Part shown: in pieces, positions 29,667 to 54,215 of the stretch
How the letters are laid out: each line of letters begins with the position of its first letter
Position numbering within the stretch: the stretch's first letter is position 1
From: an uncultured Acidobacteriota bacterium
Lineage (GTDB): Bacteria > Acidobacteriota > Terriglobia > UBA7540
DNA length: 64,000 nt
Reading direction: 5' to 3'
Assembly (NCBI GenBank): GCA_963804995.1
Contig: CAWDSK010000006.1
Location: forward strand, 2,108,698-2,172,697
The notes under the pieces: generated by a model
Told to the model about the DNA's origin: nothing
Databases searched by the model: none
What the model saw: the letters and a program-made list of their open reading frames with translations, nothing else
Position numbers and translations under genes: made by a program

Positions 29667-31851
29667 ATGCCGAGACCGCACCCGCGACGATCCGAGCAAA
29701 ATGGCCCCGCGCAGGACATAGCTGCGAAACCATCGGGCTCCGTGGACCCGCCACGCACCTCGAAGTCCTCACCCTTCGACAATCCAGAGCTCTACATCAA
29801 CCGTGAGCTGAGCCTGCTCGAATTTCAGCGCCGCGTGTTGGAGGAGGCAGAGGACCCGGGCAATCCTCTTCTCGAAAGGATCAAGTTCCTGGCCATTCTC
29901 AGCTCCAATCTGGATGAGTTCTTCATGGTGCGCGTGGCGGGCCTGCTGAAGCAGGTGGCGATGGGCTCGCAGGAAGTTGGAATCGACGGCCGCTCGGCAA
30001 GCGCGCAGCTTCAACTCATTCGCCGGGAGGTTGCAGAGATTGCGAAGGAAGCTCACCGATTATGGCGTGAGGATTTGCGGCCCGCGCTGGCGTGCGCCGG
30101 AATTCGCATTGTGGAATTCGCCGATCTGTCCGCGGAGCAACAGGCCGCAGCAAACGCTTATTTCCTGCACAACGTTTTCCCGGTTCTGACGCCGCTGGCC
30201 TTCGATGAAAGCCGCCCGTTCCCGCACATCTCCAACCGCAGCGTGAATCTGGCGGTGGTGGTGCGGGACCAGGAAGGTGAAAACCAATTTGCGCGGGTCA
30301 AGGTTCCCGACACGCTGCCCCAACTGGTCCGGGTCAAGGCATCGGTACCCGCTGAGTCCTCGGGGCCGGAGGACTCCTCTGAATTGGTGTTCGTATGGTT
30401 AGAGCAGGTCATCGCGGCCAACCTGCACCTGTTGTTTCCGGGCCTGACGATTGTGGACGCACACCCCTTCCGCGTGACCCGGGATGCCGACGTGGCCATC
30501 CAGGAGCTCGAAAGTGACGACCTGCTCGAAACTATCGAAGAAGCCATGCGCCAGCGCAGGTTCCTGGCGGCGGTGCGCGTGCAAGTGAGCACCAGCATGC
30601 CGCAGAAGATCGTCGACATTCTGACGAACAACATTGAAATCGATCCGCAACAGATCAGCCAAATCGAGAATCCGATCGGGTTCAGCCGCTTGTTCGAGCT
30701 GTACGCGCTCGAACCGTCCGGACTTGAAAGACAAGCCCTTCGTACCCTTCACCCCTCCCATCTTCGGGCTCGAGTGCCAGGAGGACTTCTTCACTATCCT
30801 TCGCCGTGAGGACATCCTGCTGCATCATCCCTACGATTCGTTTCAGCCCGTGGTCGAGTTTTTGCACCAAGCCGCGCGCGATCCGCAGGTGCTGGCCATC
30901 AAGATGACCCTCTATCGCGTGGGCCGGAATTCACCCATCGTGGCGGCGCTGCTCGAGGCCAGCGAGAATGGCAAGCAGGTGGCGGCGCTGGTGGAGCTGA
31001 AGGCGCGGTTCGATGAGGAGAGCAATATCGAGTGGGCGCGAACCCTGGAAGATGCGGGCGTGCATGTCGTCTACGGGCTGGTGGGCCTGAAGGTGCACTC
31101 CAAAATCGCGTTGGTCGTCCGGCAGGAGGGCGACGCGATTCGCCGTTATCTGCACCTGGGCACTGGAAATTATAACCCCTCGACTGCACGGCTTTACACG
31201 GACCTGGGCCTGCTGACTAGCGACGAGGAGCTGGCCGAGGACGCCACGTACTTTTTCAACGCCCTCACCGGCTATTCGGCTAATCATGTTCCCCGCCGGC
31301 TGCTGGCGGCTCCCGTCAATCTAACTGAACGGCTGGAGGAGCTCATCCTGCGCGAAATCAAGCTTCAGGAGAACGGCGAGCAGGGACACCTGATCTTCAA
31401 GATGAATGCGCTCGAGGACGCGAAAATGATCCGGCTGCTTTACCAGGCGTCGCAGGCGGGAGTGAAGGTCGATCTGCTGGTGCGCGGATTCTGCTGCCTG
31501 CGGCCGGGCCTTCCGGGAGTGAGCGAAAATATCCGCGTCACCAGCATCGTGGGGCGGTTCCTCGAACATAGCCGTATTTACTACTTTAGAAACGGCGGGG
31601 CTGAGGAGGTCTACGTGGGCAGCGCCGATTTGATGCGCCGCAGCCTGCGCCACCGGGTGGAAATCATCTTTCCGGTCCGAAGCCCCAAGCTGGTCGGCCG
31701 CCTCAAGGAAATGCTCTCCATCTATATGGCGGATGAGGCCAAGGCGCGCCACCTCGCAAGCGATGGGACCTACACACGCAATCCCAAAAAGCAGGAGCCC
31801 GGCGCCCTGAGCAGCCAAGCCTGGTTCCTGACCCATCCGGTAATGGAGTAG
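29667..31851 (+). CDS. ppk1: Polyphosphate kinase 1, frameshifted near 30710
   Basis: [44 protein letters not shown]; extra G in ctcgaaccgt. Confidence 0.92.
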
Positions 31852-32131: not shown

Positions 32132-34153
32132 CTATGGCTGGGGGGCGCTGCCGTGCTTCCGCTCGACCTCTTCCTTGATCGTGCACAGGGCATGGTTCCA
32201 CACGACGTCGTGCACGAATCCTGGAAACAATAATCTGGCGCCCTTCCACATCATCCGACTCGCGAGGCCCTTACCTCTCTTATAGTCGAAGGCCGTGTAG
32301 ATGGAGAGCCTGCGGTTTCCGTCCTTGGTCGGCCCGACGTTGAAGATGAGTTCTCCGTGATCCACCAGTCGCTCATCGGCATGATATAGCAAGGTTTCGA
32401 GGCCGACTCTTTTGGTGAGGCTCAGTTTCGCGCCCAACCCCATTAATCTGTATTGAATCACCGATCCGACCTGGTTGGGCGCCCCCTGGATCTGTTGAAT
32501 GTCTAGGAATCGCAGGGTTGCGAACCTCGCCTGGGGTTGGCCGAATTTGGCCAGTTCCTCCAGGATTTCTTCCTCCGAACCCCGTATCTTGATCACGTAC
32601 ATCCGTTCGAAGTCAGGCGACCTACCGAGCTCCATTCCCAGGCCTGAGGCAAACTGCTCCTTCAGCCACTCGCGCTTCTCCTTCAGCACCACGGTCGGGT
32701 AACGTCCGTACTCCCCCCATTTCAGGCCGAATAAAGCCTCGAACGCCACATTCCTCAGCGTGACTACAGCACCGGTGAGAATGGAGCGCAGGGCTTTGTA
32801 GCCGCACATCTCCTGGAACACTTCCCGATAGTCGGCCGTGCCGCTCGCGATTTTCCAGAGCACAACGCTCAAAGGCCGGTTCCGCTCGTCTCGCACCTTG
32901 GACTCCGTGGCAAACGCCTGGTACATAACCCGGCTCACCACTGGCACGGTGAACGCCACCCGGCTTGCGGCGTAGACCATCCGTCCAAAGCGATTGTCGG
33001 CCGCGAGCCACTTGACGGTCTTCCCGTACCCTCTGGCCAGAGACTGCTTGTCGACCCCCTCCTGGAGCACAGTCTCGGCAAGGCGAATAGCCGTGGCGTG
33101 GGCGGAGTAGAGACCGTCTTTGTTCAGCCGCGACCCCACCGCGTCGCCGATGATGGCAAACCGGTTGCCGAAAGGAACTTCCGCAGTGGTCACGGTCATT
33201 CTGGGAGCGCATGCGCAGGCCAGGGGAGCTGAGGCGATGCCGGGCAGGATGCGGTCGATCTGAGGCAGCGTCAGAAAATCGCGGACGATCTGGTGACTGT
33301 CGCGGGGGAGAACCGCCTCGTCAATACACTTGCCGATCATGGCGACGGTCAGGAATCTGCCCTTGGGAATGAGGGCCGTATGCTCAAGGGCGAGGCGTTT
33401 CGAGCCGTACTCCAGAAAGTAGATCTCCTGATGTATATTGCGTTCGAGATAGTCCTGGCCCACGTCGAGCTCGAAGATGAAGGCCTTTCGAGTCTTGCCG
33501 GGAAGGAACGCCGGATTCAAGCGCTGGACCGAGGCGATCAGACCATCGTCACGATAATCGAGGCCACAGTGAGCGTTGATGCCGGCAGCGATTGTCACAA
33601 AGGCGGCATCGAGTGAAACCGTCCCTCCGGAGGGCGTCCGCACCGCCAGGCAAGGCATTCCCGACGCGCCGTAGTCAATCGCCTGGACTTCGCCATACAC
33701 AACGCGCGCACCTTCTCTCACCGCCTCACCGAGCAGAAACCCATCGAACCCCGCAGGCCGGCCCATTCTTCTGCCCGGTAACGAGCCCCTGAAAACTGAG
33801 TACATCTGCAGGTCTTTGGGAACCCGCAGCCGGAAGTTCTTCCAATGACCCTGGATCCAGACATAATCGATGCGCCCCTGGATGATCTCTTCGGGAACGA
33901 CGAGACCTTGCTCGTGGAGAATTCTATTCAACCTTGGTGAGATAAGGCCCGCGCAGAAGTTGCACCCCTTGCATTGAAAGTCATCAAAACCCAGGGCGGT
34001 CGGACCACGCTTCTCGACGATGACAACGTCCAGAGTTCGATTCAGGCGCCGGGCTTCCCGAAGCAGATGGATGGCAAAGAACGAACCTGCAGGGCCGCCC
34101 CCGACGATGGCAACGCGGTCGTTGTTCTGGAGGCGCCAGGATGGAGATGACAT
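32132..34153 (-). CDS. FAD-dependent oxidoreductase (GGR-like N-terminus) with unknown C-terminal domain
   Basis: AIVGGGPAG, CNFCAG, IGDA motifs. Confidence 0.75.
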   Translation of the reverse strand: MSSPSWRLQNNDRVAIVGGGPAGSFFAIHLLREARRLNRTLDVVIVEKRGPTALGFDDFQCKGCNFCAGLISPRLNRILHEQGLVVPEEIIQGRIDYVWIQGHWKNFRLRVPKDLQMYSVFRGSLPGRRMGRPAGFDGFLLGEAVREGARVVYGEVQAIDYGASGMPCLAVRTPSGGTVSLDAAFVTIAAGINAHCGLDYRDDGLIASVQRLNPAFLPGKTRKAFIFELDVGQDYLERNIHQEIYFLEYGSKRLALEHTALIPKGRFLTVAMIGKCIDEAVLPRDSHQIVRDFLTLPQIDRILPGIASAPLACACAPRMTVTTAEVPFGNRFAIIGDAVGSRLNKDGLYSAHATAIRLAETVLQEGVDKQSLARGYGKTVKWLAADNRFGRMVYAASRVAFTVPVVSRVMYQAFATESKVRDERNRPLSVVLWKIASGTADYREVFQEMCGYKALRSILTGAVVTLRNVAFEALFGLKWGEYGRYPTVVLKEKREWLKEQFASGLGMELGRSPDFERMYVIKIRGSEEEILEELAKFGQPQARFATLRFLDIQQIQGAPNQVGSVIQYRLMGLGAKLSLTKRVGLETLLYHADERLVDHGELIFNVGPTKDGNRRLSIYTAFDYKRGKGLASRMMWKGARLLFPGFVHDVVWNHALCTIKEEVERKHGSAPQP

Positions 34154-34201
34154 TGCAGATCTCGCGCCGTTCGATTCAGGAGATGAAAGGCATCGTGCCA
34201 A

Positions 34202-34308
34202 AGGCACCTTGGAGTGCGGCGGCTCGACGCCGCCTTGAATTTACGCCGAGGACGATGCCGAAGGCGGCGTCGAGCCGCCGCACTCCAAGGTGCTTCGCAC
34301 ATTTTCAT
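34202..34308. repeat. REP doublet (TTGGAGTGCGG family)
   Basis: caccttggagtgcggcggctcgacgccgcctt ... aaggcggcgtcgagccgccgcactccaaggtg; copy at 36398-36507. Confidence 0.88.
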
Positions 34309-34481
34309 GTACAGTGGCGAGCCGAAGGCTCATGGGAATCTACGGTGAAAATTGCATTCTTTTACACCTTCGGACGCCCCTGGCACGAAATCTTCGCGCG
34401 GCAACAACGTCCTCGCGGCTAGCCCCACAGGACATGTAAGCACTTAAATCAAAACCGCTCTAATGAGTTCTTAATCCTCCG

Positions 34482-35906
34482 CTATTCGACCTGTTGAAGG
34501 CTCAGAGCGATCCTCACGCCATTCACCAGGACGACGCTTTGATTGATCAAATCCTGGTTAGTGATTTCGGCGTCCGTAAACTGGCGCAGGGGAGTGAGTG
34601 GGCAGATGAATTCCAACGCTTCGGAAGTGGTGGGGACCGTCCGGGAAAACTCATCGAGGACAGTAACATCGACGCCGCTGATCTCCTGGCCGGAGGGCAT
34701 TTTTGCCAGCAGGCCTTTCAGTTGCGGGGCCAGGAAGAGATCAAAACTCTGCGCGGCCCGCTTGTAGATCGAAGTTCCATTGCGGTCGAAAACCGCGGGG
34801 TTGCGGAGGGTGATCTGGAGATAGACCTGCTTGTGAAAGAGGCCAAGGGAGGCGGGCGCGTAGTTCACAAAATGATTATGCGCCAGGCCGTCACTGGTAA
34901 GGGCATCAAGCTGTGGCTGAAATTTCTTTTGCAGTTCGTCGAGCTCAACCGCCGTGGGCGCAGGCGTGACACTGGGCGCGGCTGGAGGAGCGCCGGCGGC
35001 GGGCATGGCGGGAGGCTCCACAGGACGCGGCAGGCGAAAGGTCGGCAGGGTGTCCCGGTAGAGTCCTGCCAGGCGGATATCTGAATCATGTATTGCCGGG
35101 GCCGGGTCAGGCTGTTTACTATCCACGCGCTCGGCGACAACCTTAGGCTCCACCGTGGGAGTCGGGTCTTGCGCCTTGACCTCCGGGTGATCGGTGACCA
35201 CTTTAGCCTGGACAGGATGGCCTGGCTCGGGTTTGTCGAGCTTCTCCACGTCAAAGGCTTTCTTCTCACCCAGAGCCAGTCCAAATTCCTTGCCGTCCAG
35301 GTAAACCTGCGAGCGGTCGATGATCTCCTGCTTCTTGGATTGCCTCTGAGCTTTGAGGAACGCCGGCACGTCGGCCTTATCGAAAACCAATGCCAGGATT
35401 TCTTTCCCTTCATAGCCGAACTGCTTGTTCTGGGTCCGCACATGGAAGGAGATTTCGAACCCGAACGCGTCGAAGGAAGGATTATCGGGAAAATATTTCA
35501 GCAGCAGGGGAAGGATGGGGGCGACCACGTCGCTCATAACCCGGTCCGCCCGCTCGTTTTGAGTGAGCAAGTCAGAACTGAAAGCGGCGTTGTAATTCCC
35601 AGAGATTTTCAGAACCGTGCGGTCGTGAAATTTCACGAACTCGATGCCGCGGCTGTCCGCGCCACGCCGGTCCTCGGAATCGTGACCGACAAACCGGGTC
35701 AGCACGAATTTGAAGGGGAGCTTCATGGCTGAAATCTCGTGATTCAACTCCATCAGCTTGTCCAGGTTGGCGGTTTCCAAGGCTTTCAAGCGGGGATTGA
35801 TGATTTCCGCCGGGCTCACCTGGCATGAGGCGGGGGAAGGATGCAGGAGCAGGGAAGCACCCAGGATCGACAGCGCTATCGGAATCAATCTTCGTGAAAT
35901 AGCCAT
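34482..35906 (-). CDS. Hypothetical exported two-domain protein with Pro-rich linker
   Basis: Signal peptide; 474-aa ORF starting 6 bp after the cytochrome c gene. Confidence 0.75.
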   Translation of the reverse strand: MAISRRLIPIALSILGASLLLHPSPASCQVSPAEIINPRLKALETANLDKLMELNHEISAMKLPFKFVLTRFVGHDSEDRRGADSRGIEFVKFHDRTVLKISGNYNAAFSSDLLTQNERADRVMSDVVAPILPLLLKYFPDNPSFDAFGFEISFHVRTQNKQFGYEGKEILALVFDKADVPAFLKAQRQSKKQEIIDRSQVYLDGKEFGLALGEKKAFDVEKLDKPEPGHPVQAKVVTDHPEVKAQDPTPTVEPKVVAERVDSKQPDPAPAIHDSDIRLAGLYRDTLPTFRLPRPVEPPAMPAAGAPPAAPSVTPAPTAVELDELQKKFQPQLDALTSDGLAHNHFVNYAPASLGLFHKQVYLQITLRNPAVFDRNGTSIYKRAAQSFDLFLAPQLKGLLAKMPSGQEISGVDVTVLDEFSRTVPTTSEALEFICPLTPLRQFTDAEITNQDLINQSVVLVNGVRIALSLQQVE

Positions 35907-35912
35907 GGTCTT

Positions 35913-36531
35913 CTACCTCACCGAATATTTAGGCCCAGGCCGCGCCGGGGGCTGATAGGACGGTTGGGCGATGGCGCGGTAAAATGCGATGACCGCGTCA
36001 ATGTCATCCGGGCTGAGCGTCTTTCCCCAGGGCGGCATGGCGATGGACTTCCCTGCCACGCCTCCGCCCGAGGTGATGACCGTCCGCACGAATTCGTCGC
36101 TGAGTGGGTTCAAGATGGCGCCGTCATTGGCCAGCGGCGGATTGGGATTCAGATTGGAGCGGTTCGAGGGGCCGGCGGGTGTCGCATCCGCATGGCACCA
36201 CACGCAATACTGATAGAACACGCGCTTACCTTGCGCTTGCTGATAGTTGAGCGGAATGACGCGCTGCGGATCGTTCCAATCCGTCTCGCTGTCATAAGCC
36301 TGCGTGAGAGGATCGGGTTTGGCCGCGGCCAGCTTTCCGCGACAGGAAACGGCCAAACCCGTAAACAGGATGAGGGCGAGGGCTATATAGATGTGCCGAA
36401 GGCACCTTGGAGTGCGGCGGCTCGAACGCCGCCTTGGAATAACGCCGGGGGGGAGGACCAAAGCGGCGTCGAGCCGCCGCACTCCAAGGTGCTTCGCACA
36501 TTTTCATCAATTTGGACAGCCGTGTTTTCAT
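35913..36531 (-). CDS. Monoheme cytochrome c lipoprotein; 5' end interrupted by REP
   Basis: CVWCH, MPPW Met ligand, lipobox LAVSC; ATG 36531 overlaps upstream stop but is out of frame across the REP. Confidence 0.75.
36398..36507. repeat. REP doublet inside cytochrome c 5' region
   Basis: Near-identical arms to 34202-34308. Confidence 0.88.
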
Positions 36532-38642
36532 TGGCCCCTCCCGGGTGTCGCGGCGGCGCGAGCGGGGCCGCTCTGCTTGAGCGTCATAAGATAAGCGGTC
36601 AAAGCCGTGCGCTCCGCGTCGGTGAAATCCCGATGTGGCTCAATCGTCCCGGGCATCAACGACTGCGGGTCCTTAAGCCATTCCTCAATCCACGCTGCGT
36701 TCATCCAGTTGCCGACGTTCGTCAAGTTGGGGCCGACGTAGCCACCCCCGGAGCCGATGGTGTGGCACGACTGGCATTGGTACTTCACTTCATAGAGTTG
36801 TTTGCCCAGGTTCGCCATCTGCGGAGTGAATCCCTTGGAATCGCCACCGGCCGGATCGACCGCCGGCGTCTGCATCACCATGCCGAGGTAATCGGCAAGG
36901 ACGGAGGCTTCTTCCCGGGTCATGTTGAATTGCGGCATGCGGAAAGTAAGCGTGGGCCGCAGGGTTTGAGGGTTCACCAGGAAATCGGCTATCCATTTCT
37001 TCTGGGCGCGGCTTCCTTCATACGTCAGGTCGGGCGCGAGTGTGCCTCCATAACCATTGAACCGGTGGCAGACGTAACACTTGTAACGTTCGTAGAGTTC
37101 GCCGAAGGTCCCGGCGGTGCGGAACTGCGGGTGAGCGGCGGGCTGGATCAATCCCTCCAGGCCGGTTGTCGCGGAAGGTCCCGTCATGCTGAGCAGCGCC
37201 GTAGTGATGGCATCCAGGTCCTCACGCGTGAGCGAATACTGCGGCATGCGCGCGGCGGCATTGACGGAGAGTGGATTCGTGATCTTGGCCTCGATGTAGG
37301 CCACGGGCGAGCGGGGAATCTTGGAAACACCAAACTCCAGTTGAGAAACCGTCTTGCTTCCCAGGCCGGCAAGGCTGGGCCCAAAGTCAGCCTGCGGAGC
37401 CACGCCTTTGACGGCATGGCAACTGGCGCAACCCTTCTCCGAGAACAACCGCCGCCCCAGTTGGACCTCTTCCGTCGTAGCCGCCTCAAGCTTTGGGGCA
37501 TCGCTTAACAGGCTGGGATCCGTCAGCTTCGATTGGATATATCGCGTTACGACATAGAGGTCCTGGTCCGACCATTGATAGCGCGGCATCTCGGCGCGGG
37601 GCAGATAGGACTGGGGATTGCGCAGCCAGGCCGCCAGCCAATCGGGGTTCACCTTGCTGCCCACCTTGGTGAGTTCCGGCCCGATGTCGCCACCGATGAG
37701 CTTGGTTTCTCCCGCGCGTGTGACCGCGAGCGAGTGGCAGGTGGTGCAGAACATTTGCCGGAATCGTGTCTCGCCCTGTTCGATAAGGTCGGGCCGCTTT
37801 TCCCACGCGGCCACGACGCCGGGATCAAACTTGTAGGGGGAGGTGGGCTGGCTCCCCAGCGTGCTGAGGTACGCTGAAAGCCCGCGCAGTTCCTTTTCAC
37901 TCAGCCGGAATTTCGGCATGCGCGGCTCGTCTTCGTTTTCGTAACCATTGGTCAGGACGCTGCCGTCGCTCGCGGTAAGGGTGCGAGGATCCTTGAGCCA
38001 CTTGTAAATCCAGGCTCGGCTTACTTTGGAACCGACGCTCGTGAGGTCAGGGCCAAGCATCGCGGGCTTTTCCATTCCCTGCAAGCGATGGCAGCCGACG
38101 CAATTCAGCGTGACCAGCAGTTCACGGCCGCGGTCGAGGCGCGGTGTCTGCGGCAGGTCTGCGCGGTGGCAGACTCCGCAGGAGGCTTGGATGTAACGGA
38201 CGGGCAGGACCGGCTGTTCCCAGGCGAGAGTGGTCTCATGCGCGTCGCGGACTTCCGTCGAAAGACCCTGGCCACGATGACAGACCACGCAACCCCAGTC
38301 CCGCACGCGATGGGGAATGGGTGAGTGCGCCCGGAAGGGTTGCGGTACGGAAGCATCCGCCAGGCTGGGCTGGGTAATGCCCTGGTGGCATGTCGTGCAG
38401 CGATCGACCACCTGCATTTGGGGAATCCAGATCTGATCAATGTCGGGATGAAAGTCTGCAAGCAGGCGCTTGGTGTCGGGCCGCGACTGCGCGAAGCGGA
38501 CGTAATCCCGCTCGTAGCGTTTCCAGGCGCGCAAGTAGTCCCGGATGGGCGAAACCGCAAGAACCGCCAGGAACACGACGCAGGAAACGGCGAAGATCAG
38601 GCGCAAGCGTCTTGAGACTTTTCCCATTTCTTCAGCAGGCAT
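36528..38642 (-). CDS. Membrane-anchored octaheme cytochrome c
   Basis: 8 CxxCH (CTTCH, CVVCH, CGVCH, CVGCH, CTTCH, CASCH, CYVCH, CQSCH); N-terminal TM; repeated GP-L/MP class-I-like domains. Confidence 0.92.
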   Translation of the reverse strand: MPAEEMGKVSRRLRLIFAVSCVVFLAVLAVSPIRDYLRAWKRYERDYVRFAQSRPDTKRLLADFHPDIDQIWIPQMQVVDRCTTCHQGITQPSLADASVPQPFRAHSPIPHRVRDWGCVVCHRGQGLSTEVRDAHETTLAWEQPVLPVRYIQASCGVCHRADLPQTPRLDRGRELLVTLNCVGCHRLQGMEKPAMLGPDLTSVGSKVSRAWIYKWLKDPRTLTASDGSVLTNGYENEDEPRMPKFRLSEKELRGLSAYLSTLGSQPTSPYKFDPGVVAAWEKRPDLIEQGETRFRQMFCTTCHSLAVTRAGETKLIGGDIGPELTKVGSKVNPDWLAAWLRNPQSYLPRAEMPRYQWSDQDLYVVTRYIQSKLTDPSLLSDAPKLEAATTEEVQLGRRLFSEKGCASCHAVKGVAPQADFGPSLAGLGSKTVSQLEFGVSKIPRSPVAYIEAKITNPLSVNAAARMPQYSLTREDLDAITTALLSMTGPSATTGLEGLIQPAAHPQFRTAGTFGELYERYKCYVCHRFNGYGGTLAPDLTYEGSRAQKKWIADFLVNPQTLRPTLTFRMPQFNMTREEASVLADYLGMVMQTPAVDPAGGDSKGFTPQMANLGKQLYEVKYQCQSCHTIGSGGGYVGPNLTNVGNWMNAAWIEEWLKDPQSLMPGTIEPHRDFTDAERTALTAYLMTLKQSGPARAAATPGRGQ

Positions 38643-38643
38643 G

Positions 38644-39342
38644 TCAGCTCCAGGGCCAGACCCAGGACCAGCCGGGACCCCTGAAAAAAGTTCCCACCGT
38701 GGTGAGCGTCAACGCGACGGCGATGAACCAAGTCATCACCCACCAGGGCAGCGACCGAGACCCCAGGAATTTGAGAAAACGCGTGCCTCCCGCCGGCCGA
38801 AAGTAAGGAGTCACGGCCAGCGCTCCCACCAGCACGGTTGGAACCAACACCGTCCAGGCCTCATAGAGGGCGAGGAAGGCGAAGAGTACCGCGAAGACCC
38901 CAATGAAAATCTGAAAACGCCGGCGCGGCTCGTGTGCCCAGAGCGGCTGGCCTTCAATATTCAAGTCAAAGTAGGGAATGACCACGAGCGCCAGAACCAC
39001 CAGGGTGGGGATCAGGACGCCGGCGACAATCGGCGGAAAGTAATGGAGCAGTTCCTGAAGCCCCAGGAAGTACCACGGCGCCTTGGCGGGATTCGGCGTA
39101 AGTAAAGGATTGGCAAGTTGCTCGAGCGGCGCGTCCCAGAAAAGCGCGATTGCCACCAGGACGATGGTGAGGACCTGGAACACCATCGCTTCCCGCAGGA
39201 TGACGTGCGGGTATGACATGAGCTGCGGCCCCACCTCACCTTTCACCTTGGCGGAGGTCTGGCGCGTTATGAAGACAATGCGCCGGGGATCCTGGATGGC
39301 GTCGGAGCTGAAACCGACTTGATAACTGTTCTTATCGCTCAT
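38644..39342 (-). CDS. Cytochrome b subunit IV-like (C-terminal half of split cytochrome b)
   Basis: [23 protein letters not shown] (PEWY-equivalent), TM helices. Confidence 0.85.
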
Positions 39343-40081
39343 GATCGTCTCGCACCGTAAGTCCGCCGTCCTTCTGAATCCGCCAGAAGTGCACCCCGAT
39401 CAGGCCGACGGCGGCCAGCGGCAGAATCACGCAGTGCAGCACATAAAAACGCAGGAGCGCGTTCTGCCCAATGATGTGCCCCCCGAGCAACAGGAAACGA
39501 ATGGGGCGCCCCATCAGAGGAACGTAGCTGATGATGTTCGTTCCCACCGTGATCGCCCAAAAAGCCAGTTGATCCCAGGGAAGCAGGTAACCGGTGTAAC
39601 TCAAGAAAAGCGTGACCAGCAGCAGGCCCACACCCACCACCCAATTGAACTCGTGGGGGGGCTTGTAGCCGCCGCGATAGAAAACGTGAAACATGTGCCA
39701 GAACACCGCCAATACCATCGCCTGGGCCGCAAGGCGGTGGAGATTGCGGAGAAAGACCCCGTTCGAAACCACGTAGCCCAGATCCTTCATGTCGCGGTAA
39801 GCATCGGGCACGGCGGGGTGATAGTAGAGCATCAACAGAATTCCGGTGATGGTGAGCAGTACAAAGAGGAAAAAGGAAATTGATCCCAGGTAATAAGTGG
39901 CGCGGACGCTCAGAGATTTCTCGCGGACCTTTACGGGCAGGATGTGCAGAGAAAGATTGCCAAAGACCGCCAGGCTGCGGGTGCGATTGGTGCGCGCTGG
40001 GCCGCGGCGAAAGATGGAGCGCCACACGCGCGTTTGCCGGAGCAGATCGAGCCATTGCGGGGTCCAGGGTGTTGTCGCCAT
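39332..40081 (-). CDS. Cytochrome b6-like (N-terminal half) of Rieske/cytb complex
   Basis: [33 protein letters not shown] heme ligands. Confidence 0.93.
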
Positions 40082-40087
40082 GCGTCC

Positions 40088-40582
40088 TCAGACTCTCAGA
40101 ATCTCTGTTTCGTTCACGGTTTCGAGTTTGTCCACTACCAACGCACCATCGGCGGCGATTCGCACGGCGAAGTGCGGAAGCGGCCGGGGCGCTGGCCCTG
40201 CTCCCACCTTCCCGTTTCTTTCGAATTTGCTGCCATGGCACGGGCAGGCGATCTGGTCAGACTCAGGTTTCCATTGCGTAATGCAGCCCAGATGCGTGCA
40301 GACGGCCGACATCGCCCACAAACCTTTGTCGGTCCGGACAATGTAAACCTGCTGGTCCTGAAGGTAAGTGACCGAATTCACCGCGTAGTCGTCAGGCGAG
40401 CCGGCGCGGAAGGTGGTGGGTGGCTCAAATAAAACGTTCGGTGAAGAATACTTCACGGTGACAACCGCAGCGCCGAGACCGGCGATCGCCAGTGCCCCGC
40501 CTGCGATTTCATTGAGAAAATCACGCCGGCTGACCCCGGGTTGTTCTTCCGCTTTTGCGGGCACGCTCGGTTCACCGGGCAT
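40088..40582 (-). CDS. Rieske 2Fe-2S subunit, Tat-anchored
   Basis: SRRDFL, CTHLGC, CPCHGSKF, GPAPRPL. Confidence 0.93.
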   Translation of the reverse strand: MPGEPSVPAKAEEQPGVSRRDFLNEIAGGALAIAGLGAAVVTVKYSSPNVLFEPPTTFRAGSPDDYAVNSVTYLQDQQVYIVRTDKGLWAMSAVCTHLGCITQWKPESDQIACPCHGSKFERNGKVGAGPAPRPLPHFAVRIAADGALVVDKLETVNETEILRV

Positions 40583-42531
40583 ATGAACTCTCCCTCGTTC
40601 CTTCTGGCACGCTGTCAGGGTCGTGATCAAAAACCTCAAAAGCTTCCATGGTGATGGTGTGCGCAGGGCAGCGCTCCGCGCAAAGGCCGCAGCGAATGCA
40701 GATGGTTTCGTCTTTCACCATCACGGAACCCTGGGCGGACAAAATGTCGTCAGGCGTCAAGTGCTGGAAAGTAATCGGGTCTGAGCCCACATCTTCGGGG
40801 ATTAGCCCTTTATCCACTTTGGAAATGCTCAATTGACCGAGCGGCACAAGTTGCAGGCAATCTTCCGGGCAGACATCCACACAACCGCCACAGAGGATGC
40901 ACTCGGTTCCTCGGGTTTCGTTCCCATCGAAAATGGTATTGATCCAGCACTTAAGGCAGCGCGATGCTTCCAGGCGAGCCTGTTCTTCCGTGTAGCCGGT
41001 TTCCACCTCTGCCACGCCGGTGCGGCGGTCAAGGGAAATCGTGGGCACGGACTGGCGCGTGTATTCGTCGTAGTTCGTGGCCATCTCGTGGTGGTCGAGC
41101 ACCGTAATCTGTACATACCGAGGCTTGGGCTTCCAGTTGGGACCTTGCAGATAGCGATCGATTTCCTCTGCGGCTTTCTTGCCATCCGCAACGGCGCTGA
41201 TGATAAGGCGCGGACCAAAGGCGATGTCGCCCGCCGCGAAGATTCCGGGAGCCGTGGTGCGGAGCGTATCGGGATCAATCTTGACGGTCCCCTGACGGGT
41301 CGTCTCAACTCCGTCCTGCGGTTTCAGGAAAGACAGGTCGGAGGTCTGCCCGATGGCCAGGATCGCGGTGTCACAATCCAGAATGCTCTCCGTCCCCGCT
41401 TCAAAAACAGGATTAAAGCGATGCTGGGCGTCGAAAACAGAGGTGCAGTGAATGGTTTCGAGCCCCGCCAAGCTTTCCGTTCTTGTCGACGAACCTGCGA
41501 GGGCCGCGCGAAGGGTGAATGTTCAGACCTTCGACCAGGGCCTCCTCAATCTCTTCCTCGAAGGCTGGCATCTCGGCTCGCGACTCAAGGCACACCATGT
41601 GGACTTCCCGCGCGCCCAACCGCAGCGCCGTGCGGGTGACATCCATTAACTCCTTCATGGCCACGTCGCGTTCGGCGTCGCTCAGCCGGTCAGGAAGAAG
41701 GGAACTGGTCAGCACATCGAGCGTCTGGCGTTGCTGCTGGCGAAGCGCCGTGCGCGCCACGTCAATCGCCACGTTGCCTCCGCCAATTACGACCACGCGG
41801 CTGCCAATAGAAAAGCGGTAGCCGAGGTTCGCGTTCAGCAGGAAATCCGTCCCCGTGATGACGCCATCGAGATCTCGTCCGGGAAGCATCAGGTCGCGGC
41901 TGCGGTGTAGACCAATTGCCAGCAGGATGGCCTTGAAGCCTTCCCTGCGCAGGTCTTCCAGGGAAAAGTCACCCAGGCGGCTGTTGAGCCGCAAGTCAGG
42001 CCCGAGCGCGAGAATCTCCCGGACCTGAGCCTGTACCACGTCGCGCGGCAACCGGTATTCGGGAATCCCCAGGTGCAGCATCCCGCCGGGGACTGGGGCG
42101 GCTTCAAAGATCGTTACGGGATAACCCAACAGGGCGAGGTCATGAGCGGCCGCCAAACCTGCTGGCCCGGAACCGATCACCGCCACGCGGTCGGCATGAG
42201 TCACGCGTGGCCTTTCCGGGTAAAGCTCCAGGGGATTGCGCGATTCGGGCCCGTGGCGCTCCGTGACAAAGCGCTTAAGCGCCCGGATCGAGATGGGCGC
42301 GTCGAACTGCCCGCGACGGCAGGCGGTTTCGCACGGGTGACCGCACACACGGCCGCAGATCGAGGCCAGAGGGTTTGGAGCGCGGGCGTACCGGTAGGCT
42401 TCCTCATATCGGCCTTCCGCAATCAACGCCACGTAGCGGCCCGCTTGCGTGTGGACAGGACAGGCCTGCATGCAGGGAAAGTTCGACTCCAGCCAATCCA
42501 GGTCAACCAATTTGGTCCGCTGCTCGGTCAC
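40572..42531 (-). CDS. GltD/NfnB-like FAD/NAD(P) oxidoreductase with C-terminal 2x[4Fe-4S] domain; frameshift near 41470
   Basis: CMQACP, CGRVCGHPCETAC, GSGPAG, GGGNVAID, AAGD, EASRCLKC, CILCGGCVDVCP, CIRCGLCAERCP; start 42531 or 42555. Confidence 0.88.
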
Positions 42532-42603
42532 GTTACCGCTCCACTCGGTTCGCACTCAAAAGACTCCGCACCTTCTGCCGCCTCGCCAATCCACGGTACC
42601 TGC

Positions 42604-43215
42604 TTAGCGCGTCACTGTTACGTTGACGGTGGCCGATCCACCGGAAACCGAAACGGATTGCGTGGCAGGCTTGCCTTCCTCACTCCAGGTCTTCAGCGTG
42701 TAGCTGCCGTCGGGAACATCCTTGATTTCAAAATTGCCTTCCTTATCCGTCACGGCAAAATAAGGCGTAGGTACAACCACCACGTAGCCCGACATCTCCG
42801 GGTGCACGTTGCAGAGTAGCGAGGCGACCCCGAGATCGTTAAAGACGAACGATTTCTCCTGACCCTGTGGCCAGGTGCCCATATTGTGAGCAAGCTTTTT
42901 GTTGCCACTTATGGAGGGCCAGTAAACGTTGTGCCCCACCGGATCGCTGTTCAGGAATTGCACCGTCGTGCCCTTCAAGACGACCAGCACGTGGGGGATG
43001 AAGGTCATGTGCTTTTGGTCCGCCACCGCGGGCTTGTCGGGCGGAGTGAAGGTCTTGCCAGGAATGGCGTCAACATAGACGGCGATGTTCTCCGAAGACC
43101 GCATGCCTTGAGCCGTGACTTTGCCCTTGATTTCACCGGCGAAGCTGCTGCTCGCGAAACTGAGCGCGAGCGCCAACAAGGTAACTGCCAGAACTGTCTG
43201 TTTCGTGTTTCTCAT
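42604..43215 (-). CDS. Exported cupredoxin-like protein with carboxypeptidase-regulatory-like beta domain
   Basis: Signal peptide; HNV and CNVHPEM type-1 copper ligand pattern. Confidence 0.8.
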   Translation of the reverse strand: MRNTKQTVLAVTLLALALSFASSSFAGEIKGKVTAQGMRSSENIAVYVDAIPGKTFTPPDKPAVADQKHMTFIPHVLVVLKGTTVQFLNSDPVGHNVYWPSISGNKKLAHNMGTWPQGQEKSFVFNDLGVASLLCNVHPEMSGYVVVVPTPYFAVTDKEGNFEIKDVPDGSYTLKTWSEEGKPATQSVSVSGGSATVNVTVTR

Positions 43216-43260
43216 TTCTCTCCCTCTCTTACAGAATTTACGGCCCGCTGGGCAGGGCCC

Positions 43261-44715
43261 TTAAAACACATAGTCGAATCCAGTCTCAAAGCCATTTAAT
43301 CTGAAAAACTGGTTGCTGTTAGGAATCGGCTGCTGCCAGCGATAGTCATATTCAAAGTCCCATTTGATATTGGTCCGGATCAGGAACTGTAGCCCGGGGC
43401 TCAAACGGTTACGCGTGTTGAACCGAGACGCCGCATTCAGGAAATCGGTGGGCGAATTCACCATGTCGTACCTCATCTGAGCGATCAACCAGGGATACAC
43501 CCAGTAGTTCGATTGCACGAAGCCGCCGCTGAAAGTGACCGGGGCCGCCGGCGAGACGCCTGTGATCGTGCTGTTTTGCGTCAACAGCACATGGTTTTCG
43601 TCGTGACCGTACATCCCCAGCCCGTAGAGCTCAAACTGGCGGTATCTAAACCGAAAGTCGGCCCCGACCCGGTAGAATGGCTCGTGGATGTCGGGAATGG
43701 GAGATGATCCGGAGCTTAAGGTGATCGTACCGTCCGGAAAGAGGGCATTACGGCCGTAATAGTAGTAGGCGCCCAAACGAAACGAGGTGTGGTCGCGCGG
43801 ACCTGTGGGACCCGAGGCTTGCACCTCTTTGCGAACTCCCGGATCACGCTTGAGGTTAAAGACCTGCGAGACGCGCGCGTAAATGTCCTTCGAGTTGCGC
43901 ATTGCCGGGCCGTTGTTCGCGCCGTCTACCACCGCGACCGACCAGTTGAAGTTGCTGTCGTTCGGGTATCCCCCGATTTCAATCCCGCGTTGGGGGATGC
44001 CGAACATGAAGGGGTTGGTCGCGGTTCCCTGGGCACCGGCGATGCTGGCCTGGCTGTAGATGTCGTAGCCAGTCAGGTCAATGCTGCGCGCTTGGGTGAA
44101 GGGCAGGTCAAGTTCGAACTGGCCCATGCGGAAATTCAGCGCGTCTTTGGGCAGGCCAATGTAGTGTCCCAGATCGTTCACTTTGAGGTAGCCGTCACCC
44201 AGGCCCGCTGCAGCATTGGCGCCGCCGGCAGAGATATCGTTGTCAACCCAGAAGGACAGCCGCTCCCCGAGGCTGCCGGCCGCGATGATGGTGAACGTGT
44301 TGGGAACAAAGAGATCGGTGCGGGGGAGATACCCAATTGCCAACGGTTGCTTGCTGTTATACGTCGCCACTCCTGAATAACGGAAGCCGAGGGGAAGGCT
44401 CCCTGGAATCTCGCCAGGATAAATCGCTTTCGGGAAGGCCTCTTTTTGAGCCTTCGCGCCCAGCATCACAGGCGGTTCTTTCACGAAGAGCTCATCATCC
44501 TTCGGAAATTTGAATCCGTTCTTCTTGAAGGCCACCCCGAAATCGTTGAGCTCGGGGAAATCGTTGTGGCAGGTGGCGCATGAAGTTTGGTATTTGCGGG
44601 AGAAGGCGGGGATCCCATAAGACCGGCTTGCCCAAATCAGGGAAGAACAGACCAAAGCCGCAAATATGAAACTCATGACTATCGAAATCCAATGTGGTTT
44701 GTTCCAGGGGCGCAT
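43261..44715 (-). CDS. Cyc2-like cytochrome c/outer-membrane beta-barrel fusion
   Basis: Signal peptide then IPAFSRKYQTSCATCH..FPELNDFG..FKKNG; amphipathic beta strands; C-terminal FDYVF. Confidence 0.78.
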   Translation of the reverse strand: MRPWNKPHWISIVMSFIFAALVCSSLIWASRSYGIPAFSRKYQTSCATCHNDFPELNDFGVAFKKNGFKFPKDDELFVKEPPVMLGAKAQKEAFPKAIYPGEIPGSLPLGFRYSGVATYNSKQPLAIGYLPRTDLFVPNTFTIIAAGSLGERLSFWVDNDISAGGANAAAGLGDGYLKVNDLGHYIGLPKDALNFRMGQFELDLPFTQARSIDLTGYDIYSQASIAGAQGTATNPFMFGIPQRGIEIGGYPNDSNFNWSVAVVDGANNGPAMRNSKDIYARVSQVFNLKRDPGVRKEVQASGPTGPRDHTSFRLGAYYYYGRNALFPDGTITLSSGSSPIPDIHEPFYRVGADFRFRYRQFELYGLGMYGHDENHVLLTQNSTITGVSPAAPVTFSGGFVQSNYWVYPWLIAQMRYDMVNSPTDFLNAASRFNTRNRLSPGLQFLIRTNIKWDFEYDYRWQQPIPNSNQFFRLNGFETGFDYVF

Positions 44716-44987
44716 TGTGAGCGGCCTCCTCTCATCGTGCAGGGTCGAACTTTGGTTTAACGGTGAACTCTCCGAGTGCGATTCTCGGGGCGGTGGTGCT
44801 TCGGGGGGCGCGTGTCGTTCCGCATGTAATGGAACGTTTGCGGCGAATCGTTCGATTGATGGACCGTGTGCCATTTTGTTTTTGCTGAGAGGGGGAATTG
44901 CTAACCTCCCCCGAAAAAAATACCCGCAGCACCAATGAGGCTAAGTGATTGCGTGAGGTGGGATCAGTGATTGGCAAACATAGACAT

Positions 44988-45003
44988 TGTGACAGGCGTC
45001 ACA
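44988..45003. promoter_or_regulatory. CRP-type operator TGTGA-N6-TCACA
   Basis: tgtgacaggcgtcaca, perfect consensus, between redox operon and Crp/Fnr gene. Confidence 0.8.
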
Positions 45004-45141
45004 AGCAACGGTACAAAATGGACACAAAGTCCTACAACGCTCACATTTTTGCTTAATTAAGACTTAAAGTCCGCTCATGTGGAATTTTTCCTTTGGATAA
45101 TGTTGTGCCTTGCAACATAATAGCCCTAGCAAGGTGACCAG

Positions 45142-45888
45142 ATGCCCGTAGATACGCCACGCGGCCCCTACAATTTGAATGTCATTGAAAGCTGCTTCGG
45201 CTGCGTCACTAAAGAGGACGGCCTATTCTGTCAACTTCCTCAGGCGGCGTTGGCCACACTTAATAGTCTTCGCCAGAATGCCTTTTACCCCAAGGGTGCG
45301 TTGTTGTTTGTGGAAGGGCAACCGACTCGCGGGCTCTTCCTCATTTGTTCAGGCCAGGCGAAGCTCTACGTGAATTCGGCGGAGGGCCAGAGCCTCACGC
45401 TGCGCATCGTGGAACAAGGGGAAGTCCTCTGCCTAAGTTCTCTGATTGCGGACGAGCCCTACCCCGCCACTGCTGAAACCTTGTGTCCGAGCCAAGTGGG
45501 TTTCCTTCCCCGGCTCGCCTTCCTGCAGTTGATGCGCGCTCATCCCGATGTTTCCCTGCGCGTGGCCAAGCATCTGAGCATGGAAATCAGCAAAGCCTGG
45601 CAGCAGACGCGCATGCTGGCGCTGGCTCCGGATACGCACGCCAAACTCACTCAGTTCCTCCTCGGATGGGCAGACAAGCACAGCCAAGTTACTGATGACG
45701 GTTTGCGGATCACCCTGCATATGACGCATGAGGAAATCGCGCGCAACATTGGCGCCTCGCGCGAGAGCGTGAGCCGCATTCTCAGCGACTGGAAACACCG
45801 GGGAGTGATTCGTGTGAGCGGCGGGACGATTACCATCCTCCGACCTTTAGAACTCCAGAGCGCAACGGCGCCTTTGGCCACACCCTAA
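45142..45888 (+). CDS. Crp/Fnr family regulator with N-terminal Cys cluster
   Basis: CFGC-x8-C, cNMP-like domain, HTH THEEIA..IGASRESVSR. Confidence 0.92.
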   Translation: MPVDTPRGPYNLNVIESCFGCVTKEDGLFCQLPQAALATLNSLRQNAFYPKGALLFVEGQPTRGLFLICSGQAKLYVNSAEGQSLTLRIVEQGEVLCLSSLIADEPYPATAETLCPSQVGFLPRLAFLQLMRAHPDVSLRVAKHLSMEISKAWQQTRMLALAPDTHAKLTQFLLGWADKHSQVTDDGLRITLHMTHEEIARNIGASRESVSRILSDWKHRGVIRVSGGTITILRPLELQSATAPLATP

Positions 45889-53201: not shown

Positions 53202-53402
53202 CTAGGCCCCCCGAGCTTTGGCGGGGCGCAAGCCCTCTGCGATAAGTCGGCCCACTTCTTCACTCGGGATGCGCACCAGACGGCCCAGCTTGACGTGCGC
53301 AATCTTCCGTTCCAAGAGCCATCTGCGACAGCACGCGACTGTGACTCCGAGGGCCTCAGCAAATTGTGCGACCGATAGTAATCTCGTTTGGTCATTCGCC
53401 AT
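53202..53402 (-). CDS. Excisionase-like HTH protein
   Basis: LLSVAQFAEALGV..RRW..KLGRLVRI; GGAGG RBS. Confidence 0.85.
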   Translation of the reverse strand: MANDQTRLLSVAQFAEALGVTVACCRRWLLERKIAHVKLGRLVRIPSEEVGRLIAEGLRPAKARGA

Positions 53403-53680
53403 GATTGTGTCCTCCTTCCGAGGCTGAGCATGTCACCGGTTTTGGGCCGATTCAATTTTGGGAATTTGGTCATGGTGCCAATCTAAAGAAACGACGGCGC
53501 TTGCCCACGCGAGAACCAAACAGGCCATGTCTTGCGAAAGGGATTTTTGGAATTTTGGAATAAGGCGAGTGGCCGTCTGGTTGGTGAGTCCCATTGCCCT
53601 TATGAGTAGGGCCGAGAGTAAGCTATGGAATGATACGTCTTGATAGGAAAGATCGAGTTGGGATTTTTGGAATGATTTTC

Positions 53681-54178: not shown

Positions 54179-54215
54179 AGGCCACCTCCCGCGTGGCAAT
54201 CCCGGAGTGAGGGTA

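Follow-up and report, generated by a model that had tools for sequence, protein, structure and literature searches.

A conserved nine-gene cluster of Acidobacteriota joins a Cyc2-like haem-porin and a blue-copper protein to an NAD(P)-linked Rieske/cytochrome b module

Results

Gene content of the operon

The window analysed here is a stretch of 64,000 nucleotides from contig CAWDSK010000006.1 of an uncultured Acidobacteriota bacterium. Between positions 34482 and 44715, a nine-gene operon on the minus strand joins a haem-porin and a blue-copper protein to a Rieske/cytochrome b module linked to nicotinamide adenine dinucleotide (phosphate), NAD(P). The open reading frames (ORFs) show that all nine genes are co-directional and closely spaced. 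In the order of transcription (porin, cupredoxin, flavoprotein, Rieske, cytochrome b6, subunit IV, octahaem, monohaem, and exported protein), the intergenic gaps are 45, 48, 6, -11, 1, 45, and 6 bases, plus -68 before the Rieske gene. The -68 overlap is probably the product of an over-long ORF, and the true start of the Rieske protein is probably an ATG located 18 codons inside its ORF. A tenth gene, on the plus strand, is divergent from the operon and encodes a Crp/Fnr-family regulator. The features are as follows.

43261-44715, minus strand: cytochrome-porin, 484 amino acids (aa), one CXXCH, signal peptide, predicted 16-strand beta-barrel
42604-43215, minus strand: cupredoxin, 203 aa, exported, PF00127 and C-terminal CarboxypepD_reg/Ig-like domain
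40572-42555, minus strand: GltD/NfnB-like iron-sulphur (Fe-S) flavoprotein, read as ORFs 41413-42555 and 40572-41471
40088-40639, minus strand: Rieske [2Fe-2S] subunit, PF00355, twin-arginine signal SRRDFL, one membrane helix
39332-40081, minus strand: cytochrome b6-like subunit, PF00033, four helices, N-terminal extension
38644-39342, minus strand: subunit-IV-like C-terminal half of cytochrome b, PF00032, 232 aa
36528-38642, minus strand: octahaem cytochrome c, 704 aa, membrane-anchored, eight CXXCH
35913-36482, minus strand: monohaem class-I cytochrome c, PF13442, candidate lipoprotein
34482-35906, minus strand: exported protein without a known family, 474 aa
45142-45888, plus strand: Crp/Fnr-family regulator, Pfam cNMP_binding and HTH_Crp_2
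44987-45004, no strand: palindrome TTGTGACGCCTGTCACAA in the regulator-porin spacer, candidate operator

A previous sequence-only reading of this stretch had described nine co-directional, tightly spaced genes, and the ORFs and gaps bear out that description. The gene identities that it listed agree with the Pfam and NCBIfam matches and with the motifs described below. It had placed the locus at 34482-45888; the nine genes fill this span up to 44715, but its upper end takes in the regulator on the opposite strand. A promoter and terminator scan of positions 34000-45200 found one promoter-like and ten terminator-like sites, which is not above the counts in shuffled sequences (3.3 and 11.9), and the scan is thus uninformative on the operon structure.

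The nine-gene arrangement is conserved

Two partly overlapping sets of loci (some on the same contigs) were compared with the operon. The first set comprised 20 fetched loci, of which 18, with porin identities as low as 28%, kept the order from porin to monohaem cytochrome for as much of it as the contig covers. The ninth gene, encoding the exported protein, was detected in 11 of these 18. The two exceptions were L048, which lacks the flavoprotein, and L049, which has only the porin and the cupredoxin. The second set comprised the best 80 of 568 confirmed porin matches in genome records, with 55-77% identity; more distant iron oxidisers fall outside these best 80. Fifty-seven of the 80 loci had at least 9.5 kb downstream of the porin, and 53 of the 57 hold all nine genes in order, indicating that the arrangement is far beyond chance. 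The sequence-only reading had depended on the porin and the cupredoxin being conserved beside the Rieske/cytochrome b genes elsewhere, and these 53 loci provide that conservation. The remaining four hold only the porin, cupredoxin, and exported protein; among them, L144 is arranged differently. Among the 23 shorter loci, four have all nine genes, two lack the flavoprotein (L132 and L139), one (L121) consists of the porin-cupredoxin-exported protein trio, three end at the porin, and the others are consistent prefixes.

The carriers are almost all metagenome assemblies of Acidobacteriota, and the record titles of relatives name isolates from peat, fen, and palsa; soil or peat names are frequent among them, and one title names an Acidipila MAG. 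Four loci with the full nine-gene cluster and 56-61% porin identity (L112, L120, L133, and L141) carry the titles of Eisenbacteria, Cybelea, Dormiibacterota, and Eremiobacteraceae metagenome-assembled genomes (MAGs); these represent either lateral transfer among phyla or mis-binned contigs.

In an even sample of 401 Acidobacteriota genomes, the porin matched 102 genomes at 1e-5, many of them via the haem motif alone. Among close kin, at 1e-20, it was found in 4 of 28 other genomes of the genus and in 7 of 36 genomes of the family. The octahaem cytochrome matched 76 of the 401 genomes; one of these, G024, matched weakly and over part of the length, and it enters no other result. In 28 genomes besides the source, the match was nearly full-length at E<=1e-100, and 20 of these 28 also had a strong porin match. 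In the other eight, the cupredoxin precedes the complex wherever there is upstream room (six loci). A divergent porin candidate lies upstream of that cupredoxin in L051 (a single-CXXCH ORF) and in L055 and L058 (weak matches to the porin N-terminus), while L052 has an integrase there instead of a porin candidate.

The outer genes also occur in other company. The exported protein directly follows the porin and cupredoxin, without Rieske/cytochrome b genes, in L072, L079, L110, and L121. In L061, the porin-cupredoxin pair lies beside a 1,027-aa ActB-like molybdopterin Fe-S protein, whose domains suggest that it is part of a quinone-interacting alternative complex III. In L049, the pair lies beside a COX2-cytochrome c fusion and Sco1, and in L062 the porin lies beside a dihaem cytochrome c, with no cupredoxin detected at that locus. 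Thus, the outer module (porin and cupredoxin, with the exported protein in close relatives) plugs into different inner-membrane redox complexes.

The porin has the architecture of Cyc2

No Pfam or NCBIfam family matched the porin. Its ORF extends to 44874; this longer start is probably not used, since AGGAGG precedes the ATG at 44715 and the relatives begin at that ATG. The protein has an N-terminal hydrophobic segment at residues 8-31 followed by …SYG|IPAF, a signal-peptide layout that is the same in 20 of 20 porin relatives. Its haem motif, IPAFSRKYQTSCATCH, contains the single CXXCH of the protein at residue 46, and exactly one CXXCH was present in each of the 20 relatives. Across 32 porin sequences, C46, C49, and H50 are invariant, and the N-terminus is nearly so: (I/V)PxF(A/S)RKYxTxCxTCH…LNxFGxAF.

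The AlphaFold2 model of the porin contains 16 strand elements, with a predicted local distance difference test (pLDDT) of 65 and a predicted template modelling score (pTM) of 0.66; the haem domain is of low confidence. A Foldseek search with this model retrieved 16-strand porins, with OprP (2o4v) having the highest query TM-score (0.53) and OprO (4rjw) among the matches listed (E about 1e-9). The model is therefore an OprO/OprP-like barrel of 16 strands at moderate model confidence. Keffer et al. describe OprO and OprP as the templates reported for Cyc2 (PMC8406198). In the Atlas, Porin_O_P is assigned to 12% of the members of the nearest cluster that has a Pfam family. Among 8,000 candidates scored, more than 3,107 porin homologues were found at E<=0.001, and every name seen was “hypothetical”; homologues with organism names come from Acidobacteriota (Terriglobia and “Candidatus Acidiferrales”).

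The sequenced mature N-terminus of Leptospirillum Cyt572 is given in a review as YPGFARKYNF (PMC13741234). The corresponding segment in the window, IPAFSRKYQT, is identical at 5 of 10 positions and shares with Cyt572 the FxRKY motif. Acidobacterial homologues are described as grouping around Cyt572 in a similarity network (PMC10654088). Cluster 3 cyc2 genes have been recorded in Acidobacteriota and in further putative heterotrophs by several published surveys (PMC8446621, PMC9671151, PMC10367259, and PMC9769843), and according to Keffer et al. it is Cluster 3 whose function is least certain (PMC8406198). With the Cyc2 family, the window porin shares a signal peptide, one CXXCH a few residues past the cleavage site, a predicted 16-strand barrel, and a length of about 450-570 aa. 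The Cyc2-like porin of the sequence-only reading is thus upheld in its architecture, as judged by layout and model.

Cupredoxin, c-type cytochromes, and exported protein

The cupredoxin matched PF00127 with 29.8 bits (cut-off 21.2) and CarboxypepD_reg with 33.2 bits (cut-off 32.3). His95, Cys135, His138, and Met141 are invariant in 16 of 16 cupredoxins spanning 33-85% identity. These residues, with C-x2-H-x2-M spacing, predict a type-1 copper site with amicyanin-like spacing. The protein is not amicyanin itself, whose equivalog model scored 25.9 bits, far below the cut-off of 110. In loci L044-L046, cupredoxin genes lie on both sides of the porin, the additional, upstream one having about 40% identity.

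The octahaem cytochrome has an N-terminal helix at residues 9-37 and CXXCH motifs at 82, 118, 155, 181, 299, 405, 522, and 623. The first four motifs are clustered (82-181), with a Cytochrome_C7 profile over residues 115-186, and the last four (299-623) lie in class-I cytochrome c domains; the Pfam matches are Cytochrom_C five times and Cytochrome_C7. Eight CXXCH were found in all five operon relatives inspected (L033-L037), whereas a paralogue in the source genome has seven. The monohaem cytochrome has one CXXCH at residue 93, and the signal sequences of its relatives start with M…(A/S)(T/G)(S)C. Judged by this signal (…GLAVSC), it is probably a lipoprotein.

A GC-rich palindromic repeat with the core GGAGTGCGGCGGCTCGACGCCGC occurs in 63 copies in the genome, against none for the reversed control pattern. 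It looks like an element of the repetitive extragenic palindromic or miniature inverted-repeat transposable element type. One copy, at 36463-36482 between the octahaem and monohaem genes, overlaps the sole in-frame start of the monohaem ORF, and an inverted pair directly follows the last gene of the operon at 34214-34283.

The exported protein had no Pfam or NCBIfam match and no Foldseek match at E<=0.001, and its Atlas clusters contained only “hypothetical protein”. Its model (pLDDT 67) shows two alpha/beta domains and a disordered, proline-rich linker at residues 222-314. The best structural alignment against the full PDB (VIA) reached a Z of 6.1, which is inside the usual background.

The Rieske/cytochrome b subunits resemble those of anammox bacteria

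Among solved structures, the Rieske subunit best matched 9rk4_A (1e-24), followed by 8hn2 and 9rk3 (2e-19). In Table 1 of PMC12954380, 9rk4 is listed as Kuste4569 and 9rk3 as Kustd1480, both of Kuenenia. The kinship with anammox NAD(P)-linked complexes that the sequence-only reading had pointed to is supported by this match to Kuste4569. Box II of the Rieske protein is CPCHGSKF, with the same Ser/Phe pair as Kustd1480, for which a measured potential of +335 mV is given (PMC12954380).

The cytochrome b6-like subunit matched PF00033 at 5.5e-41. His115, His129, His216, and His231, and also His46 of the N-terminal extension, do not vary among the 23 sequences compared, and the spacing in helix D is of the b6 type. 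The position of the n-side haem cysteine is known from b6f complexes. No conserved cysteine was found among the invariant or near-invariant columns of the 23 cytochrome b6 sequences, and the covalent n-side haem c of anammox-type complexes accordingly has no conserved attachment residue here. A crude hydropathy scan of subunit IV gave segments at 45-76, 98-131, 141-181 (with room for two helices), and 202-220, or about five helices. The Qo-loop motif NPAKAPWYF, in place of the PEWY loop, is invariant in 22 subunit IV sequences. The module thus has the split, b6-type cytochrome b with an enlarged subunit IV of the anammox-type complex. As in that type, a multihaem (6-8) cytochrome c replaces cytochrome f/c1, here with eight CXXCH and an N-terminal anchor.

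The flavoprotein gene is split by an extra base

The flavoprotein matched Fer4_20, Pyr_redox_2, and Fer4 of Pfam, with two ferredoxin motifs and a C-terminal ferredoxin domain. It has no membrane segment and is therefore predicted to be cytoplasmic. The best solved relatives of its N-terminal piece (41413-42555) are NfnA 9n5u (4e-66), 8oh5_C, and NfnI 5jca_L, which places this piece nearest to enzymes of the NfnA/NfnB and GltD types. The C-terminal part contains 11 invariant cysteines, in principle enough for three further Fe-S clusters. Fe-S clusters have been modelled between cytochrome b and flavin adenine dinucleotide (FAD) in the anammox complexes (PMC12954380), and the cysteines of the window flavoprotein are consistent with this.

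We predicted the complex of cytochrome b6, subunit IV, and the C-terminal 299 aa of the flavoprotein. The score was 0.51 (runs 0.49, 0.51, and 0.54), against 0.00-0.02 for the controls (n=3), with a partner pLDDT of 77 and at least 83% of the contacts common to the runs. In the calibration, 116 of 157 solved complexes attained the mark, as did 2 of 215 mismatches; only 18 of the 157, but both mismatches, had values of 0.60 or less.

An NAD(P) oxidoreductase with Fe-S clusters is encoded inside the cluster, but its frame is broken in this assembly. The sequence-only reading had counted a single flavoprotein gene; the identity was correct, while an extra base at 41467, in the G run of AAGCTTGGCGGGGCTC, splits the gene into two overlapping ORFs. 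NCBIfam PRK12771 covers profile positions 34-302 on the first ORF and 342-533 on the second. Close relatives have a single ORF of 648-653 aa. Programmed frameshifting at 41467 is ruled out, as the reading frame is uninterrupted in the relatives.

Two other genes in the window are interrupted. The polyphosphate kinase gene (ppk1) is read as ORFs 29667-30809 and 30634-31851, with a frameshift near 30690 that separates the N-terminal and middle domains from the C1 and C2 domains. An aldo-keto reductase gene at about 7.1 kb is read as ORFs 6708-7112 and 7090-7731, covering profile positions 2-75 and 90-203.

The insertion at 41467 is probably an assembly indel rather than the mark of a pseudogene, at odds of roughly 3 to 1, since these two other genes are split likewise. 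The alternative is that the insertion is real and the operon is decaying in this genome with the flavoprotein as a pseudogene, which we regard as unlikely. Such decay would agree with the extra base being absent from all close relatives and from an environmental contig, 94% alike and taken from a sediment metagenome run, that has exactly one base fewer at 41467. It would also agree with a GGAGTGCGGCGGCTCGACGCCGC repeat element having landed on the start of the monohaem gene, and with the patchy occurrence of the operon within the genus (4 of 28 other genomes). Against it, ppk and the aldo-keto reductase gene are conserved and unrelated, yet are split the same way within the same 64 kb, and the extra base at 41467 lies inside a G run. 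The genome consists of 9 contigs, which suggests a long-read assembly. Fragmented gene hits, possibly frameshifts, occur in loci of other MAGs (L085, L106, L111, L128, L136, and L143), and the remaining eight genes of the operon are intact. Among sequencing runs searched for this DNA, no RNA run was listed; the one DNA run listed, from sediment (5% of sequence words), contains relatives only, with 2 of 275 pieces at >=99%, and therefore says nothing on the frame or transcription in this strain.

Source genome, regulation, and neighbourhood

The source genome has 7.55 Mb in 9 contigs and is 92% complete. Neither the RuBisCO large subunit nor the acetyl-CoA synthase CdhC was found in this 92%-complete genome. 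The ATP-citrate-lyase marker PF16114 also gave no match, but the control genomes were silent too, and this result is not counted as evidence. Three haem-copper oxidase subunit I (COX1) genes and four cytochrome b genes indicate a branched respiratory chain. A second cluster (contig C5, 350000-369000; L059) encodes an intact 707-aa flavoprotein, a Rieske protein, cytochrome b6, subunit IV, and a 7-haem cytochrome, without a porin, cupredoxin, or monohaem cytochrome. Thus, the source genome also has the NAD(P)-linked complex as a unit by itself. The neighbours of this second cluster (GrpB, TPR, CofD, and unknowns) gave no hint of its electron sink.

The palindrome at 44987-45004 is perfect and has the form TGTGA-N6-TCACA, a CRP-type box. 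Of 14 loci checked, 10 have a similar box upstream of the porin, among them relatives with 44% porin identity, and in several relatives the region upstream of the porin holds a crp homologue. No FNR box (TTGAT-N4-ATCAA) was found in the regulator-porin spacer at up to two mismatches; window-wide, 12 were found against 15.8 expected. In the regulator, C18, C21, C30, and C69 (C-x2-C-x8-C plus C69) are invariant in 11 of 11 porin-adjacent homologues. These four cysteines suggest a redox- or O2-sensing Fe-S cluster.

Farther along the window, positions 51444-55746 hold a phage-type integrase (54517-55668), an adjoining tRNA gene (55673-55746), an int-alpA sRNA match (54201-54270), and an AAA_25 protein. 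This region, which lies about 6 kb from the regulator of the operon, probably represents a mobile element that has integrated. Near the end of the window, two near-identical tandem copies of a group II intron occupy 59951-63931; both contain a reverse transcriptase ORF of 478 aa and match RF02005 D1-D4. An additional group II intron domain match lies at 5054-5131.

Discussion

From the gene content, cofactor motifs, porin fold, and synteny described above, we infer how the gene products might assemble, in which direction and between which substrates electrons might flow, and how the operon might be regulated. The nine gene products together likely provide an electron path across the whole cell envelope. 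We favour outward flow to a soluble extracellular oxidant, with a probability of roughly 40%. In this scheme, the Rieske/cytochrome b complex would oxidise menaquinol. The high-potential electron would pass from the Rieske protein via the octahaem and monohaem cytochromes to the cupredoxin, the porin haem, and a soluble high-potential oxidant outside, for which Fe(III) complexes at acid pH or Mn(III) are candidates. The low-potential electron would pass from the b haems through the Fe-S clusters and FAD of the flavoprotein to NAD(P)+, a bifurcation as proposed for anammox bacteria. Alternatively, the flavoprotein would pass electrons from NAD(P)H into the n-side of the complex. The bifurcating form of the chain, in which export to Fe(III) or Mn(III) would drive the other electron uphill to NAD(P)H via the bound flavoprotein, strikes us as a long shot. 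The Crp/Fnr-type regulator and the palindrome would make induction of the operon dependent on redox state or O2.

Quinol oxidation is the usual direction of Rieske/cytochrome b complexes. The periplasmic chain appears to be high-potential, with a Rieske protein at about +300 mV by analogy, blue copper, and class-I haems. The sequence-only reading had envisaged a conduit from outside the cell to NAD(P); taken literally, this fails, as a high-potential chain (CPCHGSKF Rieske, blue copper) cannot reduce NAD(P)+ directly. Because the chain is high-potential, NAD(P)+ reduction would be plausible only with a quinol donor and a sink outside. According to the potentials in PMC12954380, menaquinol (-70 mV) reduces NAD(P)+ (-320 mV) only if the other electron falls to a high-potential acceptor. 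Outward flow is favoured because NAD(P)+ would be reducible only with a quinol donor and a strong oxidant sink, because a flavoprotein oxidising NAD(P)H would also send electrons to the periplasm, and because no carbon-fixation markers (RuBisCO, CdhC) were detected. The branched respiratory chain of the genome also speaks for this direction. The sites that such a path would use are kept: the copper ligands in 16 of 16 sequences, the b-haem histidines in 23 of 23, and all eight CXXCH. For Acidithiobacillus ferrooxidans, a review describes a proposed outward route via the quinone pool, bc1, CycA1, and rusticyanin, with Cyc2 as the terminal Fe(III) reductase (PMC8790237).

Several points weigh against outward flow. 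A single-haem porin with a blue-copper partner is a hallmark of iron oxidation, and known metal-reducing conduits consist of low-potential multihaems. A. ferrooxidans Cyc2 and Leptospirillum Cyt572, both described as having verified activity, and a Cluster 1 Cyc2 tested by Keffer et al. oxidise Fe(II) (PMC8406198), which points to inward flow. Autotrophy was judged from two marker families, RuBisCO and CdhC. In contrast to the anammox models, no cysteine to which an n-side haem could be covalently bound is conserved in the cytochrome b6, and the low-potential path here may therefore differ. In the deposited sequence, the frame of the flavoprotein is broken, and the Rieske/cytochrome b genes stand beside the porin and cupredoxin without a flavoprotein in L048, L132, and L139, so the flavoprotein is dispensable in some relatives. 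The predicted contact of the flavoprotein with cytochrome b was modelled with a separate alignment for each chain and in a three-chain monomeric set-up unlike that of the calibration, and it adds a small, weak increment to the synteny.

The main rival is inward flow, in which Fe(II) or another extracellular donor enters via the porin haem, cupredoxin, and c haems. Most electrons would go to a haem-copper oxidase, while the Rieske/cytochrome b complex, reversed by the proton-motive force, would refill the quinone pool, like the “uphill” branch of rus/petI in A. ferrooxidans. Fe(II) is common in peat, fen, and palsa, the habitats named in the titles of relatives. The Cyc2 architecture of the porin, its FxRKY…CxxCH N-terminus as in Cyt572 (PMC13741234), and the Fe(II) oxidation reported for tested Cyc2-family members (PMC8406198) speak for uptake, as does the A. 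ferrooxidans scheme, in which a Cyc2 and blue-copper pair feeds a bc complex (PMC8790237). The three COX1 genes would be available for the downhill branch, and a four-cysteine regulator suits micro-oxic control. However, no oxidase is encoded within the operon, and an n-side flavoprotein would make no sense in reverse, as it would spend NAD(P)H on lifting an electron at +300 mV to quinone (from the potentials in PMC12954380). With RuBisCO and CdhC not found in the genome, reverse electron flow would meet no obvious need. Keffer et al. regard Cluster 3 homologues as those with the most uncertain function (PMC8406198), and surveys place such genes mostly in putative heterotrophs (PMC9769843). 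We consider uptake possible but rather doubtful. The products might also be co-regulated without forming a single wire, which we consider improbable. The Rieske, cytochrome b, and octahaem subunits would then be an ordinary quinol:cytochrome c/cupredoxin reductase for periplasmic or oxidase sinks, and the flavoprotein would serve another purpose, as a soluble enzyme of the NAD(P)H:ferredoxin or GltD type. This is suggested by the otherwise similar operons that lack the flavoprotein, the occurrence of the porin-cupredoxin-exported protein trio alone in four loci, the second cluster without a porin or cupredoxin, and the weak support of the model for docking on cytochrome b6 and subunit IV. Yet the flavoprotein lies between the cupredoxin and the Rieske gene in 53 of 57 loci and next to the Rieske/cytochrome b genes in the paralogous cluster, a strong and specific linkage. 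The complex-prediction score also stands well clear of its controls, and the homologous subunits of Kuenenia are described as co-migrating as one complex (PMC12954380, citing de Almeida 2016).

Outward flow would change how a common marker is read. Cyc2 homologues are widely used as a metagenome marker of iron oxidation, yet surveys keep encountering Cluster 3 genes in presumed heterotrophs, Acidobacteriota among them. Their fixed genomic association with a quinol-oxidising, NAD(P)-linked complex puts such genes into a testable context and may reverse their reading to export. If true, bifurcating export would give these “iron-oxidase marker” genes an outward function in heterotrophs, and the anammox-type complexes would gain a tractable model outside anammox bacteria. 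The NAD(P)-linked complexes have been described in anammox bacteria, which grow slowly, and the mechanism proposed for them is unproven; the occurrence of this module in dozens of Acidobacteriota genomes, twice in the source genome and with a defined chain of periplasmic and outer-membrane partners, widens the testbed for bifurcation. Judging from the record titles, the pathway could matter for iron and carbon cycling in peat, fen, and palsa.

Comparison with known systems

ExtHIJKL of Geobacter sulfurreducens is an outer-membrane conduit. The window operon shares with the Ext systems an outer-membrane conduit beside a b-type cytochrome complex, and the window cytochrome b scored 253 bits on ExtP. 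It does not belong to the Geobacter Ext selenite/tellurite operon, since all Ext equivalogs of NCBIfam remained under their curated cut-offs (ExtP 253.1 against 290, ExtQ 48.2 against 150, ExtS 74.1 against 100, and ExtJ 17.4 against 52.5). In contrast to Ext, the window has neither a multihaem porin-cytochrome pair nor a rhodanese lipoprotein, and instead has a fused Cyc2-type porin and a copper protein.

With the rus and petI/petII systems of A. ferrooxidans, as reviewed in PMC8790237, the operon shares its logic: a Cyc2-type protein in the outer membrane, a periplasmic blue-copper protein, c cytochromes, and a Rieske/cytochrome b complex linking the quinone and NAD pools. That system is proposed to be bidirectional, serving both Fe(II) oxidation and anaerobic Fe(III) reduction. 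It differs in its separate operons, its proteobacterial bc1 with cytochrome c1, and its NAD+ reduction via complex I; rusticyanin is another cupredoxin, and the host is an extreme acidophile and autotroph. Compared with the Cyc2 family as described for A. ferrooxidans Cyc2, Leptospirillum Cyt572, and Mariprofundus Cyc2PV-1, the porin here is accompanied by a cupredoxin that carries an Ig-like domain and by an NAD(P)-linked Rieske/cytochrome b complex, not by cyc1/cox/rus.

Kartal and co-workers reportedly put forward a proposal on the Kuenenia Rieske/cytochrome b complexes in 2013. The inner-membrane part of the operon appears closest to these NAD(P)-linked complexes; for this comparison, the Rieske protein was matched by sequence, and cytochrome b and the flavoprotein were set beside published descriptions. 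The anammox complexes are described as having a b6-like cytochrome b, a five-helix subunit IV, a hexa-/octahaem cytochrome, and a co-migrating cytoplasmic NAD(P) oxidoreductase, with a proposed bifurcation of menaquinol electrons between a high-potential acceptor and NAD(P)+ (PMC12954380). With Kuste4569-4574 and Kustd1480-1485, the window shares the four-helix, b6-type cytochrome b, the enlarged subunit IV, the multihaem in place of cytochrome f, and the NAD(P) oxidoreductase in the cluster. His46 is a candidate equivalent of the extra haem b ligand proposed for Kuenenia. In contrast to the Kuenenia complexes as described, the window has no octahaem of the hydroxylamine oxidoreductase type and no conserved n-side haem cysteine, and the flavoprotein precedes the Rieske gene. 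The host is a soil Acidobacteriota in which RuBisCO and CdhC were not detected, as opposed to an anammox autotroph, and the sink would be extracellular and not nitrite. In full-text searches of the literature, we found no paper that describes this combined operon. Beyond the Kuenenia-type complex, the operon encodes a haem-porin of the outer membrane, a cupredoxin, a monohaem lipoprotein, and the exported protein without a known family. The operon is thus a new combination of two known kinds of system, and it is widespread in Acidobacteriota genomes.

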